A stretch of 64,000 nt of DNA, taken from assembly GCA_003696075.1 (NCBI GenBank), contig RFHH01000119.1, positions 10,873 through 74,872 of the forward strand, in the 5' to 3' direction. This document shows positions 8,707-49,949 of this stretch, piece after piece; the first letter of the stretch is position 1, and the number at the start of each line of letters is the position of its first letter. This stretch comes from Acidobacteriota bacterium. GTDB lineage: Bacteria > Acidobacteriota > Polarisedimenticolia > J045. The position numbers and the translations under genes were made by a program. The notes under the pieces are model-generated. The model worked only from the letters and a program-made list of their open reading frames with translations, searched no databases and was not told the origin of the DNA.

Positions 8707-8782
<76 letters not shown>

Positions 8783-40246: not shown

Positions 40247-41515
40247 ATGAGCCGCAGCAAGGTCGCCGTCCTCCAGACCCGCCCCCGCACCGTCTTCGCC
40301 GACTACCACCGCCTGATGAACCTCGCGGGGTACCAGGACGTCATCGACCGCTCAGCCGACACGGCACTCAAGATCAACATCTCGTGGCACTTCTTCTATC
40401 CGGCCAGCTCCACCACGCCCTGGCAGCTCGAGGGCGTGATCCGCGCGATGAAGGCCGACGGGTACGATCCGGCGTTGATCCACGGATGCCACAACCGGAC
40501 GGTCGTGATCGACGCCCACCTCGGGGAGCGCGAGAACAAGCACCTCGCGGTGCTCCAGGCGCACGGCCTGAGGAACATCCATCTCTACGAGGGCGAGGAG
40601 TGGATCCACATCAGAGATGCGGTCGGGGAGCTCGCCGACCGGTTCCTGTGCCTGAACGACGTCTATCCCCGAGGCTTCCACATCCCGAAGCGGTTCATCG
40701 GCGAGAACATCATCCACCTGCCGACGGTCAAGACCCACGTGTTCACCACGACCACCGGGGCGATGAAGAACGCCTTCGGAGGGCTGCTGAACGAGCACCG
40801 ACACTGGACGCACCCGGTGATCCACGAAACGCTCGTCGACCTTCTCATGATCCAGAAGAAGATCCACCGGGGGGTCTTCGCGGTGATGGACGGTACGTTC
40901 GCCGGGGACGGACCCGGGCCGCGGTGCATGGTGCCGCACGTGAAGAACGTGATCCTGGCATCCGCCGACCAGGTCGCGATCGACGCGGTGGCGGCGCGGA
41001 TGATGGGGTTCGACCCCCTCTCGATCAAGTACATCCGTCTCGCGCACGATCTGGGACTCGGATGCGGCGATCCGCGGGAGATCGAGATCGCCGGCGACGA
41101 GAGGGCCGCGGCACAGAACTGGCGCTTCGACGGACCGTACAAGCGAATGACCTTCGCTTCCCGCATGCAGCACAAGATCTACTGGGGCCCGCTGAAGAAA
41201 CCGGTCGAGTGGTCGCTGAAGACGGTGCTCGCGCCGTGGGCGTACGTTGCGAGCGTTCTGTACCACGACAGCTTCTGGTATCCGCTGAAGGCGAAGCGGA
41301 TGATGCGGGCGGCGCTCGACAGCGAGTGGGGGCGGCTGTTCCGGAACTGGGAAAAGCTGAGCCCCGACGAACTCGGCTTTCCCGAGGTCGGTGACGAACC
41401 GGCGGAGCTGGAGAAGACGGGGCTGCGCGCTCTTCGCCAATCGCTCGGGATCCTCGCCACCTGTCTCCGGGAGGCCCCGGAGTTCGCCGCGCGACGGCGA
41501 GCCCGCGGGCGCTGA
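40247..41515 (+). CDS. DUF362 domain-containing protein
   Basis: MSRSKVAVLQTRP… The conserved DUF362 core is present throughout. The family call is from memory. Confidence 0.7.
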   Translation: MSRSKVAVLQTRPRTVFADYHRLMNLAGYQDVIDRSADTALKINISWHFFYPASSTTPWQLEGVIRAMKADGYDPALIHGCHNRTVVIDAHLGERENKHLAVLQAHGLRNIHLYEGEEWIHIRDAVGELADRFLCLNDVYPRGFHIPKRFIGENIIHLPTVKTHVFTTTTGAMKNAFGGLLNEHRHWTHPVIHETLVDLLMIQKKIHRGVFAVMDGTFAGDGPGPRCMVPHVKNVILASADQVAIDAVAARMMGFDPLSIKYIRLAHDLGLGCGDPREIEIAGDERAAAQNWRFDGPYKRMTFASRMQHKIYWGPLKKPVEWSLKTVLAPWAYVASVLYHDSFWYPLKAKRMMRAALDSEWGRLFRNWEKLSPDELGFPEVGDEPAELEKTGLRALRQSLGILATCLREAPEFAARRRARGR

Positions 41516-41678
41516 CGAGCGCCGCGCTCCGGCAATTCCCTCCGCGGCGGTGGGGATCCCTCTTTCCCCGCAGCCGGCACCGCGTTCGCACCGCCGCGGG
41601 GACACCCGGGGCCGGTTTGCAGCTTCGCGCGTCTTCGCGGTACCCTCCGGCGGCTCCCGAGCCGTCCGGAAGGCGCCG

Positions 41679-44600
41679 ATGACCCTCAAACTGCCCACCC
41701 TTCCGCGCCAGCTCTTGCCGGCCGCCCTGGCGTCGCTCATCGTCGTGCCGCCCGCTGCAGGCGGGCCGCCGGCGGCGCTCGTCAGGGACCTCCGGTCGCC
41801 AGAAACCGCGGGATCGGGCGTTTCCTCCTTCCCCCACGATCTCGTCCGCTTCGGCTCGATCGTTCTGTTCGCCGCCGAGGACCCGGCGCACGGTAGCGAG
41901 CTGTGGCGGACCGACGGCACGCCCGGCGGGACGGAGTTGGTTCTGGACATCCAGGCGGGAGCGGGAAGCGGCTCCCCGACGAACCTCACGGTCGCCGGCG
42001 GCGCCGTCTACTTCACCGCGGACGACGGAGTTCACGGTCGCGAACTGTGGGTCAGCGACGGCACCGCCGCGGGAACGCGGATGGTGGCCGACATCGCGCC
42101 GGGACTCGCGGGTTCGCGGCCCGAAGCGCTCTTCTCCGACGGCACGCGCCTCTTCTTCGCGGCCGACGACGGGCTCCACGGCCAGGAGCTGTTCGTGACC
42201 GACGGAACGGCGGGCGGGACCGTACTGCTGGCCGACATCGCGGCCGGTACGGAGACGTCCTTTCCGCGGCCGCTCGGAGCCGCCGGCGGTCTCCTCTACT
42301 TCGCCGCCACCGAGAGGTCCGCTGCCGGCGTTTCTCCCGCCGGCACGGGACGCGAACTGTGGGTGACCGACGGGACGCCGGAGGGCACGCGGCTCGTCAA
42401 GGACATCGATCCAGGGGAGGCCTCTTCCTCGCCGGCCGGTTTCGCCCTGGCGGGCGGGCTCGTCCTGTTCAGCGCGGACGACGGCACCCACGGCCGGGAG
42501 CCCTGGGTCACGGACGGGACCGAGGCGGGCACGCACCTCCTTCTCGACGTCAATCCGCCGCAGGAAGGCGACGAGGCGCGCGGTTCCGATCCGCGGGAGT
42601 TTTTCCCCTTCGCCGGGATCGTGCTCTTCTCGGCCTTCCGCGACGAAGACGGCCGCGAGCTGTGGCGAACCGACGGCACCGCCGCCGGGACCTTCCCGGT
42701 GGCCGACATCGCTCCCGGAACGGATTCCTCGTCGCCGTTCGGCTTCACCGCCGCGGGCGGGTTCGTCTACTTCTCCGCCGCGGACCCGAACCACGGGCGC
42801 GAGCTGTGGCGAACCGACGGCACGCCGGGGGGAACGGCGCTCGTCGCCGACGTCGGCCGCGGGGCGGGTGCCGCTCCGGGGGCTGCCGACCCGCTCGACG
42901 GCGATCCGGGACAGCTCACCCCGCTCGGCGATGGGATCCTCTTCGCCGCCACCGACGAGGCGCACGGGCGGGAGCCCTGGTTCGCCGACGGCGCCGGCGC
43001 CGTCCTCCTCGCCGACGTCCGGCCGGGCGCGGCCGGGAGCGATCCCGTCGTGCTCGCCGCGGCCGGGAGTGCCGTCTATTTCGCCGCCGGGGAAGGTGGG
43101 GATGGCCGGACGCTGTGGCGCTCCGACGGCACGCCCGCAGGCACGGGCCCGGTCCCGACCCCCTTTCCGCCGCCCCTCGGGCCCGATACCGCGGTGGCCC
43201 TCGGCGAGCTGTTGATCTTCGTCGCCGACGACGGTGTCTCCGGGCGGGAGCCATGGGTGTTCGATCCGGCGGCCCCTCAGTCCGAGCGGTTGGCCGACAT
43301 CGCCGGAGAGGACGGTTCCCTCCCGATCCCTCTTCTGTTCACCGAGGTGGTGCGCACGGGCGAGACCGAGCCGGTCGAGCAGCTGTTCTTCTCCGCCGAC
43401 GACGGGCTCCACGGCCGCGAGCTATGGGCCACCTTCGGCACCCCGTCCGGGACGTCGCTGTTCGCGGACATCGATCCCGGCGCGCCGCCCTCGACGCCCG
43501 CGGACCTCACCCTGTTCACCGCCGACGGGGGGGACCGGATCGTGCTCCGGGCTCACTCGGAGGCGCTGGGCGAGGAACCGTACGCCGTGGTCCTCGCGAC
43601 CCAGGTTCTCGTCCCGCTGGGCGATCTCCGGCCGATCAGCGGCCTCGGCTCGAAACCGCGCGAGTTCACCCCCTCGGGCGGCTCGATCTTCTTCAGCGCG
43701 GACGACGGCATCCACGGCCGGGAACTGTGGCGGAGCGACGGGACGGCGGACGGAACCGCGCTGGTGGCCGACATCGGGCGTGACGGCACCGGGAGCGATC
43801 CCGATCCCCATGGCTCCGATCCGGCGGACCTGACGAGCGCCGCCGGACTCCTGTTCTTCGCTGCAGAGGATCCGGGCGCTGGCCGCGAGCTCTGGATCAC
43901 CGACGGCACGGAGGCGGGAACGCGGAGGGTGAAGGACATCGAACCGGGTCCCGGCTCCTCCTCGCCGCACGACCTCACCGCGCTGGGGAATCTCGTCCTG
44001 TTCGCCGCGAGCACGACGGACGCGGGCGAGGAGCTCTGGGCGAGCGACGGGACGGAGGCCGGAACGGCGCGACTGGCGGACATCGCTCCCGGCGCGGCGG
44101 GCTCCTCCCCGAGGATCCTGCTGACGGCAGGGAATCACGCCTATTTCAGCGCCGACGACGGGACGCACGGGCGCGAGCTCTATGTCACCGACGGAACGAG
44201 CACCGGAACCGTCTTCCTCGGCGATCTCGAGCCCGGCACCGGCGGCTCCGACCCGGCGGGGCTGTTCGACCTCTCCCGCGACGGCACCGAGCGCGTCCTC
44301 TTCACCGCCTGGACGTCCGCGGAGGGTCGCGAGCTGTGGGCGACCGACGGGACCCCGGCCGGTACGTCGCTCCTCGCCGACATCGCAGCGGGGCCGGCCT
44401 CCTCCGATCCGGCCGGGATGACGCTCCTGGACGCCTCGGCGCTGTTCAGCGCGGACGACGGCCTGCACGGCCGCGAGCCGTGGGTCACCGACGGGACCGC
44501 CGCGGGAACCTCCCTCGTCGCGGACATCTCCCCCGGGGCGGCGTCGTCCATGGCCGCCGGGGCGGCGTCCTTCGCCGCCGCGGGCGGGCGAGCCTTCTTC

Positions 44601-45116
44601 GCCGCGGACGACGGGGTGAGCGGGGCCGAGCCGTGGTCGACCGACGGGACGAATGCCGGAACGGAGCTGGTGCAGGACATCGCACCCGGCCCGGCCGGAT
44701 CGGCGCCGGCTCGTTTCCTGGCGGGCCGGACGCGCGTCTTCTTCTCGGCGGACGACGGCACGCACGGCCGGGAACTGTGGGCGATCGACCTGTGTTCCTA
44801 CCCGTCGTCGGGGGATTGCGACGGCGACGGCGTGCCGAACCAGGCGGACAACTGCCCGAGGACCCCGAACGCGGACCAGCTGGATTTCGACGCCGATGGG
44901 GCCGGCGACGCCTGCGAGTCGGGCGCCTCCGCAGCGGACGCCGACCGATCGGGTCGCGTCGACGGGTACGACCTCGCCGCCCTCGGGAGGGCGTTCGGCG
45001 CCGCCGCGGGAGATCCCCGTTACGATCCGACGGTCGATCTCGACCGGAACGGATTCGTGGACGGAGAGGATCTCGCCCTTTTCGCCCCCGAGTTCGGCGC
45101 GGAGGTGGAGCCATGA
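41679..45116 (+). CDS. ELWxxDGT-repeat surface protein with C-terminal thrombospondin type-3 repeats and type-I dockerin
   Basis: GGAAGG Shine-Dalgarno sequence. Signal-like N-terminus. About 19 tandem ~50-55 aa repeats (G[RQ]ELW[RV]TDGT..GT.LV.DI.PG…S.P). The C-terminus has DCDGDGVPNQADNCPRTPNADQLDFDADGAGDAC, then DADRSGRVDGYDLAAL… and DLDRNGFVDGEDLALF (two Ca-binding dockerin segments). Confidence 0.85.
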   Translation: MTLKLPTLPRQLLPAALASLIVVPPAAGGPPAALVRDLRSPETAGSGVSSFPHDLVRFGSIVLFAAEDPAHGSELWRTDGTPGGTELVLDIQAGAGSGSPTNLTVAGGAVYFTADDGVHGRELWVSDGTAAGTRMVADIAPGLAGSRPEALFSDGTRLFFAADDGLHGQELFVTDGTAGGTVLLADIAAGTETSFPRPLGAAGGLLYFAATERSAAGVSPAGTGRELWVTDGTPEGTRLVKDIDPGEASSSPAGFALAGGLVLFSADDGTHGREPWVTDGTEAGTHLLLDVNPPQEGDEARGSDPREFFPFAGIVLFSAFRDEDGRELWRTDGTAAGTFPVADIAPGTDSSSPFGFTAAGGFVYFSAADPNHGRELWRTDGTPGGTALVADVGRGAGAAPGAADPLDGDPGQLTPLGDGILFAATDEAHGREPWFADGAGAVLLADVRPGAAGSDPVVLAAAGSAVYFAAGEGGDGRTLWRSDGTPAGTGPVPTPFPPPLGPDTAVALGELLIFVADDGVSGREPWVFDPAAPQSERLADIAGEDGSLPIPLLFTEVVRTGETEPVEQLFFSADDGLHGRELWATFGTPSGTSLFADIDPGAPPSTPADLTLFTADGGDRIVLRAHSEALGEEPYAVVLATQVLVPLGDLRPISGLGSKPREFTPSGGSIFFSADDGIHGRELWRSDGTADGTALVADIGRDGTGSDPDPHGSDPADLTSAAGLLFFAAEDPGAGRELWITDGTEAGTRRVKDIEPGPGSSSPHDLTALGNLVLFAASTTDAGEELWASDGTEAGTARLADIAPGAAGSSPRILLTAGNHAYFSADDGTHGRELYVTDGTSTGTVFLGDLEPGTGGSDPAGLFDLSRDGTERVLFTAWTSAEGRELWATDGTPAGTSLLADIAAGPASSDPAGMTLLDASALFSADDGLHGREPWVTDGTAAGTSLVADISPGAASSMAAGAASFAAAGGRAFFAADDGVSGAEPWSTDGTNAGTELVQDIAPGPAGSAPARFLAGRTRVFFSADDGTHGRELWAIDLCSYPSSGDCDGDGVPNQADNCPRTPNADQLDFDADGAGDACESGASAADADRSGRVDGYDLAALGRAFGAAAGDPRYDPTVDLDRNGFVDGEDLALFAPEFGAEVEP
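41880..44790 (+). repeat. Intragenic tandem coding repeats (~150-165 bp units, ELWxxDGT)
   Basis: Recurrent cacggccgcgagctgtgg…gacggcac blocks at roughly 150-165 bp periodicity inside CDS 41679..45116. Confidence 0.8.
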
Positions 45117-45754
45117 CAACGCGGAACGGCGGCGAGTTCGCCCGGGTGCGGCTCGCCCGCCCGCTGCTGGCGGCGGTGGCGGCCGTCATGGTGGGGACCG
45201 GTCTCCTCGCGACGGGGTGCCACGAAGCCCCGCCGGATATCCTCTTCGAATCCCCGCTCACCACCTTCTTCACGGAAAGCTCCACTCCGGATGCCCCGGA
45301 TCTCGTCCGGCTGCGCGGGGAGGTCATCGACAACCAGACCGTTCTGGTTGAAGTCGTCGTCACCGGTCCGACCACCAGCTCCGACATCTACTCGTTCGCT
45401 TTCGACCTGCTGTTCAGCGGCGATCTCACCCCGCAGTACGTGTCCGGATCGGCCGAGGCGGGTGATTTCCTCACGGCCGGACCGGGCCAGGACGTCGTCG
45501 CCCAGGTGAGTCAATCGGGGGCGCGCCTGACCGTCGGGGTGACGAAGACGGGCGGTGGTCCGGGCAACGGCCTGGGGGCGGGACAGGCCACGGTGGTGAG
45601 CTTCCGCGTCACCCTCCCGGAAGCGGGCCGGGCGGCGATCCGCTTCGCGGCCGATCCCCAGGGACGCGCTCCCGCCGCCCTCGATCCCTCGGGAAATCCG
45701 GTGCCGTCGATCGTGTTCGACGGCGAACCGGCGGTCATCGCGCGGCAGGCGTGA
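45113..45754 (+). CDS. Cohesin-like domain lipoprotein
   Basis: ATG overlaps the upstream stop (ATGA). Lipobox LLATGC. IYSFAFDLLFSGDL…AEAGDFL and LTVGVT… resemble the cohesin beta-sandwich core. Confidence 0.55.
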   Translation: MTTRNGGEFARVRLARPLLAAVAAVMVGTGLLATGCHEAPPDILFESPLTTFFTESSTPDAPDLVRLRGEVIDNQTVLVEVVVTGPTTSSDIYSFAFDLLFSGDLTPQYVSGSAEAGDFLTAGPGQDVVAQVSQSGARLTVGVTKTGGGPGNGLGAGQATVVSFRVTLPEAGRAAIRFAADPQGRAPAALDPSGNPVPSIVFDGEPAVIARQA

Positions 45755-46635
45755 GGGCTCACGGGACGCCGCGCGGGTTCGGACCGGCCGCCGGGGCGGT
45801 GCTCGCGATCGTCCTGGTCTCGGTGGGATGCGCGACCACGGGGCCTCCCGGCGTTCCTCCCGGCGCTCGCCCGCTCTCCCCCCCGCCCCGCGAGCCGGCC
45901 GGCGAGGGCGGCTCACGCGTGGGCGGCCCGCCGGGGGAGGTGCCGCGTCCCGCGGGACGCGGTTCGGAGGCGCCCGCGCCGCCGGAGGCCGGGGAACCCG
46001 CCCGGACGAACGAGGGATCCGGAAAAGACTCCGCCCCCGGCGGACCCGGCCGAGCCGGCTTCGTCGCGGCCGTCCCCCCGGACTCCCCCGCGGAGGTTCC
46101 CGCGGCGGGCGAAGCGGCGGAGCCGCTCGCCCCGAGCCGCGAGCCACCGGAGCGGGAGCCGCCGGAACACGCTCGCGAGCCAGCGGCGCCGCAGGAGTCC
46201 CCGGGCCCGGAACCGGGTGCGGAGACGGCGATCCTCGTCGTCCCCGAGCCCGCGGAGGTTGCCCCCGGGGAAATCGTCACGCTGAGCGTGCGCCTCGCCG
46301 CGGCGGTCGAGGTGTCGAGCGTCCCCCTTCTCGTGCGGTTCGATCCCCGGATCGTGTCGTTTCTCGACGCGGCCGAGGGAGATTTCCTCCGCCGGGACGG
46401 CGCCCCCACCGCGTTTCTGGCGTCGCTCGACTCGTCCGGCCGCGCGGTGGTGGTGGGAAACTCGCGACTCGGCCGCCGGCCGGGGCTGTCGGGAGACGGA
46501 GAGGTCTGCCGGCTCCGTTTCCGCGCGCTGGCCTCCGGTGATCCGGCGTTCTCCGTCCCCCGGGCGAACGTGAGGGCCGCGGGCGGCGCCGTCGTGGCGG
46601 CCGAGCTCACCGTCCTGCCCGCACGGGTGCGCTGA
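45751..46635 (+). CDS. Cohesin-like domain lipoprotein (second copy, Pro/Glu-rich linker)
   Basis: GTG overlaps the upstream stop (GTGA). Signal and lipobox (LVSVGC). A long PE-rich low-complexity linker. The C-terminal domain GEIVTLSVRLAAAVEVSSVPLLVRFDPRIVSFLDAAEGDFL matches the cohesin pattern (…YDP..LE.V….GDFL). Confidence 0.6.
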   Translation: MRAHGTPRGFGPAAGAVLAIVLVSVGCATTGPPGVPPGARPLSPPPREPAGEGGSRVGGPPGEVPRPAGRGSEAPAPPEAGEPARTNEGSGKDSAPGGPGRAGFVAAVPPDSPAEVPAAGEAAEPLAPSREPPEREPPEHAREPAAPQESPGPEPGAETAILVVPEPAEVAPGEIVTLSVRLAAAVEVSSVPLLVRFDPRIVSFLDAAEGDFLRRDGAPTAFLASLDSSGRAVVVGNSRLGRRPGLSGDGEVCRLRFRALASGDPAFSVPRANVRAAGGAVVAAELTVLPARVR

Positions 46636-46687
46636 CCGCGGTATGATGCTTCCGGTCGCCCGGTGCTCCGGGCGAGGGGAGGTCTCC

Positions 46688-47440
46688 ATGATCGCCGTCG
46701 GCAGCGAAGCGCCAGCCTTCACCCTTCAGGACCAGTTCGGGCGCACCATCGATTCGAAGAAGATCCTGGAAACGCGGCACCTCATGCTCTTGTTCTACCC
46801 GCTCGACTTCACCCCCACGTGAAGCCGGGAGGTGCCGGCGGTCCAAGCGCGGCTCGCGCGCTTCGAGGCCGCCCACACCCAGGTTCTGGGTGTCAGCGTC
46901 GACAGCATCTACTGCCACGCCAACTGGGCACGGAGTCTCGGAGGCATTTCGTTCCCCCTGCTGGCCGATTTCCACCCGAAAGGCGACGTGGCGCGCCGTT
47001 TCGGGCTCTACCTCGAGGACAAGGGGATCACGGACCGGGCGACCGTGATCGTCTCGCGCGACGGCATCGTGCGGTTCGCGGAATCGGTGACGCCCGCGGG
47101 CGAACGCGACATCGACGCGCTCGTGGCCGAATGCGAGCGGATCGACCGCGAGCACCCGGGCGGGGAACCCCCGGCACGCCGCCGACTCCCCGACGGTTCG
47201 GTGCTCTTCGTGAAGACCGGCTGCCCCTTCTGCCGTTGGGTGCTCGCTGCGCGGGAGAACCTCGGGCTCACCGAGTCGCTGCCCGTGCGGAACGTCTCGG
47301 AGGACCCGCAGGCGCGCGCCGAGCTGGAGCGCATCGCCGGCCGGACCCAGGTGCCGTGCCTCGTGAGGGAGGGCGAGCCGATGCACGAGTCGGCCGAGAT
47401 CGCTCGCTTCCTCGCCGAACTCGCCGCACCCGTCCACTGA
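46688..47440 (+). CDS. Selenocysteine-containing peroxiredoxin (BCP/PrxQ-like) fused to glutaredoxin; in-frame TGA at 46820-46822
   Basis: GGGGAGG Shine-Dalgarno sequence, ATG 46688. The translation MIAVGSEAPAFTLQDQFGRTIDSKKILETRHLMLLFYPLDFTPT-[TGA]-SREVPAVQARL… aligns to the Prx motif FYPxDFTPxC, with TGA at the peroxidatic Cys. The downstream ORF is in the same frame and continues the Prx fold. The C-terminus carries a Grx domain with CPFC. Confidence 0.7.
46837..46873 (+). promoter_or_regulatory. Putative SECIS-like stem-loop 15 nt downstream of the in-frame UGA
   Basis: GGCGG-UCC-AAGCGCG-GCUCG-CGCGCUU-CGAGG-CCGCC forms a bipartite hairpin (5 bp + 7 bp stems, 5-nt apical loop). A smaller alternative hairpin, GCCGG-GAGGUG-CCGGC, lies at 46824-46839. 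Confidence 0.4.
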
Positions 47441-47510
47441 ACCGGAGCGGGCGGGCCGGAGCTCCGATCGGGCCGCGGCCGGCGCGGCGGCGAACCGTTG
47501 CGGAGGCGGT

Positions 47511-49949
47511 TCAGGAGAACTGGCGCAGCGTCTCGGCCATCTGCGACAGCCGCCGCGAGACCCGATCGCCCAGGCTTCCGGCCGGCCACGTGCCGTTCTC
47601 GTCCGGCGCACCGAACGGAATGCCGGCGAGCAGACCCATCAACTCCGCCACGCTGTCCACCGGGTGGATGCGGAATTTGCCCGCCGCGATGTCGTCGACC
47701 ACCTCGGGCGAAAGCTGGAGGTAGGCCACGCACGACGATGGGATGATCACGCCCGGCCGCCCCCGGAACCCCCGCTCGCGGCACGCCCGCCAGAAGCCCT
47801 CGATCTTCTCGTTGATACCGCCCACGGCGAGCACGTTCCCGTGCTGGTCCACCGCACCTGTGACCGCGAGGTCCTGCCGCAGCGGTTGATTCGAGAGGGC
47901 GGAGAGCAGCGCGGCGAGTTCGGCCGACGACGCCGAGTCTCCCTCCACGCCGCCATAGGACTGCTCGAAGCAGATGCTCGCGGTGACCGACAGCGGGAGG
48001 CGTCGCGCGAACTGGGAACGGAGATACCCCGCCAGGATCAGCGAAGCCTTGGTGTGGATCTCCCCCGACAGATCCGCTTCCCTTTCGACGTCGATCACCC
48101 CTTCGTCCCCAACGGCCACGGTGGCGGTGATGCGCACGGGGTAGCCCAGCCGTTCCAGTTTCGTCTGCACGACGGCGAGCGCGTTCACCTGGCCCACCGC
48201 CGTGCCCTCGAGATCCAGCTTGAGCACCCCTTCCCGGATCGCGTCCTGAATGCGTCCCGACAGGAGGCCCTGCCGCTCGCGCCGGGCTCGCAGCGCCCGC
48301 TCGACATCCTGCATCTCCACCCGGCCGACCCCCCGCTCCCGCGCGAACCAGGTGGCCTCCCGCGCCAGGTCCAACATCTCGCGGAAGCGCGTCGACAACC
48401 GGTGGCGGCTGTCGGCCAGCCTGACCATGTACTCCATGATCCGTGCGACACCGTCCCGGGAGATCGGCAGGAGGTCCTCCTCCTTCACGACGCGCGCGAG
48501 GAAGCACGCGTAGGAGTAGACCATCTCGGCGGTCAGCGGGACCCGGTCGTCGAACAGCGCGGTCACCTTGAACAGCTTGGAGAACTCCTCGTCGCCGCTA
48601 TGGAGCAGATCGTGAGTGCCGACCGTTCCGACGAGGACCACGGTGACATCGATCGGGATCGGCTCGGGAAGGAGCACCGGCGGCCCCTCGGAGGCGTTGC
48701 CGCTGACCGGGGTGACGCTGTTGGTGAGCATGGACCTCCGGAGCGCCGGCCACGCCCCCTCTTCCGACAGCAGCTCCCTCGCGTTCAGGACGAGATAGCC
48801 GCCGTCGGCGCGGTGCAGGGCCCCGGGACGGATGCTCGACAGGCCCGCCTGCAGGCCCCCTTCCGGCGTCCGCCGAGCTTCGACCACACCGCACAGGCGG
48901 GGCGCGGTGGGATCCACCTCCTCCACCAGGGGCCGTCCGTCCTCCTCGGCCCGGTCGACCAGAAGGTTCACGCGGAGCACGTCGAGCGGGCTGAATGGCG
49001 TGCCCTCGCCCGGTTGCGTGCGGACCGCCTCCCCCTGGGCGTAGAGAACCGGGAAGATCTCCAGAAGGTAGTTCTCGACGTCGGCGAGGAAGCGGTCCAG
49101 ACCCGGCCGCTCTCCCTCCTCCAGTCCCACCGCCTCTCGGATTCCGCCGACGATCTCCTTGATCGCCGGAACGGCCGCCTGCCGGTCGAACTCCGCCACC
49201 GCGCGTTCGAGCTCGCGGCCCAGCGCCTGGAGCTTCGCCGTTTCGCGCGAAAGGCGCGCGGCGAGCTCCGGATGCCTCCGGCGCAAGCGCTCCGCCTCCT
49301 CGGCGGGGATGACGCCCTCGTGGACCTTGCCGTCCAGCTCTCCCATGGAGACGGGTTCCCCCCCGACGACCGGGGCGAGCTCGTGCCGCCGGAAGTTGCC
49401 CAGATTCACCTCGACGAGGGCGAAGCCCTCCTTTTCGACCTCCGTCTGGAAGTCCTTGATGATCCGGCTCTGCTGCTGCTGGAACCGGCGGGCGATCATC
49501 TGCCGCCGCTTCCTGTGCGTCTGGGAGCCTCGAAGGGCGAGAAGGCCGTGCTGGAAGCGCTCGATCGCGGCGTCGAGCGCCGCTCTCAATCTCCGGCCCG
49601 CCCCGGCGGGGAGCCGGAGCGCGCGCGGCGATCTCGGATCGGCGAAGTTGTGCACGTAGCACAGGTCGTCCGGGACGGGCCCCTTCTTCCGCACCTCCTG
49701 GAGGACGCGCCTGACCGTGGATGTCCGGCCGGTGCCCGGGAGCCCGGCTACGTAGACGTTGTAGCCGCGTGCCCTCAGACTGGCCGCCAATCGCACCGCG
49801 TCGACAGCCTTCGGCTGGTCGTAGGCGCTGGCGCAGTCGCCGAGCTCGGCCGTGGTCTCGAACGGCAGCCACTCCGCGGGACAGCGCCAGGCCACCTGGT
49901 CGGCCGTCAGGGAACGTTCGAGCGGTTCCGGTCCTCGGCTCACGGGCAA
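47511..49949 (-). CDS. LonC-like protease (AAA+-like domain with degenerate Walker A + S16 Lon proteolytic domain)
   Basis: 812 aa. GLPGTGRTS (Lys replaced by Arg in Walker A). The C-terminal Lon protease domain has a Ser-Lys dyad region (…EQSYGGVEGDSASSAELAALLSAL…). Confidence 0.8.
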   Translation of the reverse strand: MPVSRGPEPLERSLTADQVAWRCPAEWLPFETTAELGDCASAYDQPKAVDAVRLAASLRARGYNVYVAGLPGTGRTSTVRRVLQEVRKKGPVPDDLCYVHNFADPRSPRALRLPAGAGRRLRAALDAAIERFQHGLLALRGSQTHRKRRQMIARRFQQQQSRIIKDFQTEVEKEGFALVEVNLGNFRRHELAPVVGGEPVSMGELDGKVHEGVIPAEEAERLRRRHPELAARLSRETAKLQALGRELERAVAEFDRQAAVPAIKEIVGGIREAVGLEEGERPGLDRFLADVENYLLEIFPVLYAQGEAVRTQPGEGTPFSPLDVLRVNLLVDRAEEDGRPLVEEVDPTAPRLCGVVEARRTPEGGLQAGLSSIRPGALHRADGGYLVLNARELLSEEGAWPALRRSMLTNSVTPVSGNASEGPPVLLPEPIPIDVTVVLVGTVGTHDLLHSGDEEFSKLFKVTALFDDRVPLTAEMVYSYACFLARVVKEEDLLPISRDGVARIMEYMVRLADSRHRLSTRFREMLDLAREATWFARERGVGRVEMQDVERALRARRERQGLLSGRIQDAIREGVLKLDLEGTAVGQVNALAVVQTKLERLGYPVRITATVAVGDEGVIDVEREADLSGEIHTKASLILAGYLRSQFARRLPLSVTASICFEQSYGGVEGDSASSAELAALLSALSNQPLRQDLAVTGAVDQHGNVLAVGGINEKIEGFWRACRERGFRGRPGVIIPSSCVAYLQLSPEVVDDIAAGKFRIHPVDSVAELMGLLAGIPFGAPDENGTWPAGSLGDRVSRRLSQMAETLRQFS

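Follow-up and report, generated by a model that had tools for sequence, protein, structure and literature searches.

A predicted cassette of one dockerin-tailed protein and two lipoprotein cohesins in Acidobacteriota

In a metagenome-assembled Acidobacteriota genome (locus-tag prefix D6718), we identified three genes on the forward strand that probably constitute a non-cellulosomal cohesin–dockerin retention cassette, the cargo protein of which would be held at the cell envelope. The genes span positions 41679..46635 of the 64,000-nucleotide stretch of contig RFHH01000119.1 that was analysed as a whole (hereafter the window; about 70% G+C), in the order cargo gene, gene A and gene B. Judged by sequence, the C-terminal tail of the cargo protein is a dockerin and gene B encodes a cohesin, the latter also by predicted fold, and gene A encodes a divergent cohesin according to its structure model and its homology to B. 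The strongest evidence that these parts form a cohesin–dockerin cassette is comparative and comes from the gene order seen in related genomes.

Loci around homologs of A were drawn from assemblies and from one genome per species, and all six-frame open reading frames (ORFs) of these loci were searched with profiles that we built for the dockerin tail, for A and for B. The named locus records are all from Acidobacteriota (Ca. Polarisedimenticolia), three of them from Ca. Polarisedimenticolaceae. A gene map of the loci based on G+C content at third codon positions was too crude at 70% G+C to rely on. In 11 of 17 distinct loci (the window, L001, L002, L006, L007, L008, L010, L011, L012, L014 and L019), A is preceded, on its own strand, by a dockerin-tailed gene that ends at most about 150 nucleotides (nt) away. 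The dockerin gene lies 1.4 kb upstream of A in L015 and is convergent with A, abutting it, in L009; L016 is cut off upstream of A. A B-type cohesin directly follows A in the window, L004, L007 and L013. Because the flanking genes differ in every locus, the cassette is self-contained.

The proteins that carry the tail have little else in common. Their cargo regions consist of Kelch propellers in L001 and L002, FG-GAP repeats and a weak, sub-threshold Pfam match to Peptidase_M10 in L009, an LCAT-like, lipase-like alpha/beta hydrolase with PKD in L015, a lactonase-type propeller in L019 and MopE repeats in L010–L012 and L014, and no known domain was found in the cargo of L007 and L008. The tails themselves are 44–83% identical in pairwise BLAST comparisons, or 59–83% when leaving out the L002 tail, which has an insertion. 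The order of dockerin gene then cohesin gene, which a preliminary description made from the window's sequence had pointed out, is thus conserved for A-type cohesins in relatives with unrelated cargo domains. A constant tail beside a constant small cohesin gene, with varying cargo, is what would be expected if the cohesin recognises the tail. Across 13 loci, dockerin distances correlate with A distances (Mantel r 0.68, permutation p 2e-4). Further ORFs trail the cohesin genes in two loci: L004:9651-11109 contains ORFs of 301 and 173 amino acids (aa) with no Pfam match, and L007:8898-9404 an ORF of 168 aa that resembles a lipoprotein and ends in a highly charged tail; the trailing ORFs of L004 and L007 showed no mutual similarity by BLAST.

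The cargo protein of the window comprises a Sec-type signal peptide, about 19 ELWxxDGT repeats (NCBIfam TIGR04534 ELWxxDGT_rpt, 994.6 bits over 19 stretches), which presumably form a beta-propeller, a thrombospondin type 3 repeat and the C-terminal dockerin. We defined a dockerin by two features, a tandem pair of roughly 22-residue segments that carry F-hand calcium loops and profile homology to solved dockerins, and the window tail shows both. Its two F-hand segments, DADRSGRVDGYDLAALGRAFG and DLDRNGFVDGEDLALFAPEFG, have acidic or polar residues at loop positions 1, 3, 5, 9 and 12; DADRSGRVDGYD and DLDRNGFVDGED fit the F-hand loop pattern (Asp, Asn or Ser at 1, 3, 5, 9 and 12), and LA..(L/F)....FG comes after each of them. 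A profile built from 12 tails matched solved dockerins, with 2y3n_B as the best match (E 1.8e-8) and 2b59_B at E 1.2e-6. The window tail is 59–66% identical to the tails of L001, L006 and L007, and homologous tails score above the Pfam dockerin threshold in eight loci (L001, L002, L006, L010, L012, L014, L015 and L019). Positions 3–24 of the tail profile match thrombospondin-1 and COMP.

Every tail is preceded by calcium-binding repeats of the thrombospondin or MopE type. In the alignment of 13 tails, a Cys pair (FGxxCG ... DxxxC.VDG) is wholly present in seven (L007, L008, L010, L011, L012, L014 and L015) and wholly absent from six, the window tail among them; this co-occurrence suggests that some tails have a disulfide connecting the linker between the repeats with the second calcium loop. 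The calcium-binding repeats and the Cys pair fit an extracytoplasmic, calcium-rich setting.

Gene B encodes a lipoprotein signal, a disordered linker and a C-terminal cohesin. The cohesin domain scores 25.1 bits against Pfam Cohesin (PF00963; threshold 24.1) over aa 166-263, and its homologs score 29.2 bits in L004, 23.0 in L013 and 15.9 in L007. A profile of the B domain with three homologs from other loci gave 16 matches among solved structures, all of them cohesins, the best being 3l8q_A (E 1.6e-7) and the non-cellulosomal cohesin 2xdh_A of Archaeoglobus fulgidus (E 1.4e-5 over 106 residues). Used as a single sequence against solved structures, B gave non-significant matches alone. When the last 140 aa of B served as the query of a word-index search for homologs, no match was returned and B itself was missed, and a search with full-length B returned its own sequence only, the low-complexity linker having swamped the search. 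Together with the predicted fold, the Pfam score above threshold and the profile matches to solved cohesins bear out the earlier assignment of B as a cohesin. The Pro/Glu/Ala-rich spacer described at the same time is present but shorter than the roughly 150 aa then given: it covers 133 residues (28-160) and contains 34 Pro, 23 Ala, 21 Gly and 18 Glu, so that 72% of it is Pro, Ala, Gly or Glu.

The product of gene A has 20 homologs (E 4e-33 to 3e-11, 37–51% identity), and an exhaustive search of 1.84 billion proteins with the A profile found 554 cluster representatives at E ≤0.001, 101 of them at E ≤1e-30 and nearly all about 200 aa long. These homologs and the predicted fold rule out that A is a spurious ORF. 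An AlphaFold2 model of A, made from a 21-sequence alignment, is confident over residues 50–212, with ten strands and a mean predicted local distance difference test score (pLDDT) of 89.2. The top matches of this model in a Foldseek search of solved structures are almost only cohesins, with 2jh2 the best (E 6.6e-5), and a nine-stranded beta-sandwich with solved cohesins as its nearest structural neighbours was found in the predicted models of both A and B. In sequence, the A and B families align by hhalign with 96% probability (E 3.8e-9 over 103 columns). The comparison aligns with each other exactly the two segments, IYSFAFDLLFSGDLTPQYVSGSAEAGDFL in the first protein and LLVRFDPRIVSFLDAAEGDFL in the second, that had been singled out as cohesin-like in the preliminary description. 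In addition, the A profile reaches a protein with established cohesins (P0160) at E 1.5e-18, for which Pfam Cohesin gives 89.5 bits over three stretches, so that A shares profile-level homology with established cohesins by way of both the B family and P0160. The proposal that A is a cohesin, too, is thus supported by the predicted fold and by profile-level homology to B. The most conserved motifs of the A family, GPTTSSDIYSFAFD and RVVVGVTKxGGGxGNG, map to the presumed strands 3 and 6 of the model and would there lie on the sheet that binds dockerins in solved complexes.

Some members of the A family have other architectures. P0049 (376 aa) combines an A-type cohesin with C-terminal repeats that look thrombospondin-like by eye and have no Pfam match, and P0101 (299 aa) combines one with C-terminal MopE-type repeats (Pfam 35.8 bits); these are the repeat types that precede the dockerin in cargo proteins. 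P0160 (856 aa), the most distant of the A-profile matches listed, has four cohesins, a carboxypeptidase-regulatory-like domain and a type IX secretion sorting tail (Por_Secre_tail), and looks like a surface scaffoldin from another phylum.

Several observations weigh against reading the three genes as a cohesin–dockerin cassette. At the level of single sequences, the window tail scores 15.7 bits against Dockerin_1 (PF00404; aa 1086-1134), below the Pfam threshold of 22.9, and A has no match to Pfam Cohesin even at E ≤1. NCBIfam likewise gave no meaningful match for A, a weak Pfam Cohesin match occurs in only 4 of 21 A-family members (best E 4.7e-5), and the A-family profile found no match among the sequences of solved structures. 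The structure model of B rests on an alignment of A-family sequences. The correlation between dockerin and A distances could be explained by shared ancestry. No dockerin gene lies within reach of A in L004, L013, L017 and L018. The preliminary description had named as its own counter-evidence a wide occurrence of the same lipoproteins without any dockerin-bearing partner, and this is not what the relatives show, as such a partner is lacking in these 4 of 16 informative loci and present in 11–13.

The remaining point of this kind comes from the dockerin side. Metagenome contigs searched with the dockerin-tail alignment included 14 with the same full-length tail subtype, 11 of which had enough flanking DNA to be informative. 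A is adjacent to the dockerin gene in five of the 11 (downstream in three, convergent in one and upstream in one), and no A stands beside the dockerin in the other six. Strict one-to-one pairing of cohesin and dockerin genes is ruled out by these six contigs. The dockerin subtype therefore probably outnumbers A, and the cohesins are likely to have several cargos, with the gene of one of them usually located next to A. In two more distant lineages (L046:545-1117 and L063:961-1548), the ORF directly after a dockerin-tailed ORF is about 190 aa long and encodes a B-like cohesin (scoring 68 and 40 bits, respectively, with the B profile); a small cohesin gene behind a dockerin gene is therefore an arrangement found beyond the A family as well.

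Both A and B begin with a lipoprotein signal, as had been proposed, in which a charged n-region and a hydrophobic core lead to a lipobox-like Cys (MTTRNGGEFARVRLARPLLAAVAAVMVGTGLLATG before Cys36 in A and MRAHGTPRGFGPAAGAVLAIVLVSVG before Cys27 in B). The Cys is conserved throughout the A family: a strict lipobox pattern is found in 96 of 124 full-length representatives, and most of the remainder show, by eye, a hydrophobic stretch followed by a Cys and then a Gly-rich stretch. Among B homologs, the one in L007 carries ALPG-C, and that in L004 has an N-terminal hydrophobic anchor without a Cys. The signals are recognised from their sequence pattern, and lipidation itself is predicted.

The stop/start overlaps reported earlier are present at both junctions, with the ATG of A on the TGA stop of the upstream gene (ATGA, 45113-45116) and the GTG of B on the TGA stop of A (GTGA, 45751-45754); an ATGA overlap is also found in L007. 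From these 4-nt overlaps we infer translational coupling of the cargo gene, A and B. A scan of 41300..47600 for promoters and terminators gave nothing informative.

Gene A is absent from public annotation. Its exact product is missing from a collection of 15 billion proteins and the locus tags on either side, 07605 and 07610, are one step of 5 apart, which we read as no intervening gene in the record, so that A went uncalled there. The next annotated gene after the cargo gene is B (RMG45412.1), given there as 373 aa compared with 294 aa here; that length places its start at 45514, an ATC codon within gene A. The extension is Arg/Gly-rich and is a wrong-frame read of gene A, and the annotated protein is probably too long. 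We favour the GTG at 45751, from which B starts with a proper lipoprotein signal like that of its L007 homolog.

Table 1. Features of the putative cassette, in window coordinates.
Feature	Coordinates	Strand	Basis or remark
Cargo gene, RMG45411.1, D6718_07605, 1145 aa	41679..45116	+	start 41679 same as in NCBI record
Thrombospondin type 3 calcium-binding repeat, cargo aa 1037-1067	44787..44879	+	Pfam TSP_3 28.7 bits, threshold 25
Dockerin module of cargo (by sequence)	44934..45107	+	two F-hand segments DADRSGRVDGYDLAALGRAFG and DLDRNGFVDGEDLALFAPEFG, joined by AAAGDPRYDPTV
Gene A, 213 aa, predicted lipoprotein with one divergent cohesin domain	45113..45754	+	translation, homologs
A signal peptide and lipobox, aa 1-36, LLATG-C, Cys36 at 45218-45220	45113..45220	+	read from sequence
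A cohesin-fold domain (predicted), aa 50-212	45260..45748	+	
Gene B, 294 aa from GTG 45751; lipoprotein signal, disordered linker, C-terminal cohesin	45751..46635	+	
B signal peptide and lipobox, aa 1-27, VSVG-C, Cys27 at 45829-45831	45751..45831	+	read from sequence
B Pro/Ala/Gly/Glu-rich linker, aa 28-160	45832..46230	+	composition
B cohesin domain, aa 160-294	46228..46632	+	

In the mechanism that we propose, the cargo protein, with its ELWxxDGT propeller, calcium-binding thrombospondin-type repeat and two-F-hand dockerin, would be exported through Sec. A and B would be lipidated and membrane-bound, with A holding one cohesin near the membrane on a short tether, about 13 residues past the lipidated Cys, and B offering a second cohesin on a flexible, disordered tether of about 130 residues. 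One or both cohesins would bind the dockerin in a calcium-dependent manner and so keep the cargo at the envelope, and A and B would probably also hold dockerin-tailed proteins encoded elsewhere in the genome. In this scheme we infer dockerin binding, the role of A and/or B as the partner, calcium dependence, the location at the surface or in the periplasm, and co-translation.

The location admits a variant that we regard as possible, in which the lipoproteins face the periplasm and the cargo is kept there, or at the inner face of the outer membrane, and not at the surface; this is a sub-variant of retention at the envelope, and the confidence placed in the two overlaps. The signals that can be seen are confined to the Sec and lipoprotein types, the cassette has no outer-membrane export system beside it, and the long disordered tether of B resembles the periplasm-spanning linkers of outer-membrane lipoproteins. 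Outer-membrane lipoproteins such as LpoB span the periplasm by linkers of this type. To our knowledge, however, all characterised cohesin–dockerin systems are extracellular, and the type IX secretion sorting tails of distant A-profile relatives (P0160) likewise speak for display at the surface.

The two F-hand segments of the window dockerin are identical at 12 of 21 positions, on account of which a dual binding mode, or the binding of two cohesins by one dockerin, is possible, although this is speculation. A more elaborate version of retention, which we consider doubtful, is a two-tier lipoprotein relay in which the dockerin binds the short-tether A and the long-tether B, together or successively. 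If true, A and B would position, or hand outward, a set of dockerin-tailed propeller proteins and hydrolases in the diderm envelope, and the relay would be a natural counterpart of engineered lipoprotein–cohesin display, using a cohesin family missed by current domain libraries.

It is also conceivable, but unlikely, that A is a dedicated escort or chaperone that binds the dockerin briefly for export, folding or sorting, with B or another protein as the receptor. The tight linkage of A in cis to one cargo gene, as is often seen with dedicated chaperones, and the recurrence of stop/start overlaps (ATGA in the window and L007) would suit such a role, whereas the family-wide lipoprotein signal of A and its full cohesin fold would not, and same-subtype dockerins without an adjacent A are better explained by a shared receptor than by a private chaperone. 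It is very unlikely that A and B are cohesin-like envelope or adhesion lipoproteins that do not bind dockerins and adjoin the repeat protein by co-regulation, since dockerin adjacency in 11–13 of 16 informative loci, beside unrelated cargos, is very hard to explain without a dockerin link and B is a cohesin at the sequence level.

The neighbours of the cassette encode a DUF362 protein, a DUF4442 protein, a peroxiredoxin and a Lon-like protease. Just downstream of B, 46689..47440 (+) contains MIAVGSEAPAFTLQDQ...FYPLDFTPT with an in-frame TGA (46822-46824), followed by an AhpC/TSA and a glutaredoxin-like domain. It is a probable selenocysteine peroxiredoxin–glutaredoxin fusion, as the TGA stands at the position of the peroxidatic Cys of peroxiredoxins. 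The alignment of the read-through product continues through the TGA position, NCBIfam matches it best to PrxU (75.8 bits, below the cut-off of 270), and a GC-rich hairpin after the TGA has a folding energy that is not exceptional (z -1.4). The Lon-like protease (47511..49949, −), with LonB AAA and LonC helical domains, looks ordinary, as does a tRNA-Gly (GCC) at 8707..8782 (−), the sole RNA gene detected in the window.

Cohesin–dockerin pairs are among the strongest modular protein connectors, and the non-cellulosomal ones are widespread and almost never characterised. The putative cassette offers a concrete prediction that involves one defined dockerin and two defined cohesins with neighbouring genes, together with a predicted lipid-anchored form of cohesin in diderm bacteria and a cohesin subfamily of several hundred sequence clusters that escapes Pfam and NCBIfam. 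It suggests how uncultured sediment and hot-spring Acidobacteriota may retain large propeller proteins and hydrolases, and protein engineering may gain new orthogonal connector pairs from it. Peer et al. 2009, as cited in PMC8542988, surveyed cohesin and dockerin modules of the non-cellulosomal type in all domains of life. We found no published description of a lipoprotein-cohesin/dockerin cassette in the literature on Acidobacteria, ELWxxDGT proteins and Gram-negative lipoprotein cohesins. Given the survey by Peer et al., systems of the non-cellulosomal kind are known as such, and what appears new is a cohesin family that had gone undetected, the anchoring of cohesins as lipoproteins and a conserved cassette in which the cargo can be exchanged.

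A cellulosome, which we took to require a multi-cohesin scaffoldin plus dockerin-bearing carbohydrate-active enzymes or carbohydrate-binding modules, is ruled out, in agreement with the preliminary description: A and B have one cohesin each, no scaffoldin with multiple cohesins is present, and the 13 cargo proteins that were examined contain neither a glycoside hydrolase nor a carbohydrate-binding domain. In function, the nearest counterparts are OlpA and OlpC of Clostridium thermocellum (3ul4 and 4dh2, solved with dockerins), single-cohesin anchors that hold individual dockerin proteins at the cell surface; sequence identity to solved cohesins in this comparison is 12–14%. OlpA and OlpC are attached by SLH repeats in monoderm Firmicutes, whereas the proteins described here would be attached by an N-terminal lipid, or by a membrane helix in L004, in diderm Acidobacteriota, their cargos are propellers and other non-carbohydrate proteins, and the cohesin gene adjoins the cargo gene. 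By sequence, B is closest to the Archaeoglobus fulgidus cohesin 2xdh, from which the cassette is set apart by lineage, domain architecture, predicted lipoprotein anchoring, a second cohesin family invisible to Pfam and the conserved gene order. The cohesins and dockerins of Clostridium perfringens GH84 and GH33 enzymes (2jh2, 2o4e, 2vo8 and 2w1n) are modules inside large glycoside hydrolases that link enzyme to enzyme in toxin complexes, in contrast to the small, stand-alone and membrane-tethered cohesins predicted here. Finally, the cellulosome-like complex predicted in Cloacimonadota (PMC8542988) and P0160 resemble the cassette in being predicted cohesin–dockerin display systems of diderm bacteria, but these are scaffoldin-like, with multiple cohesins, a type IX sorting domain and hydrolytic-enzyme cargo, whereas the Acidobacteriota cassette would rely on single cohesins with lipid anchors.

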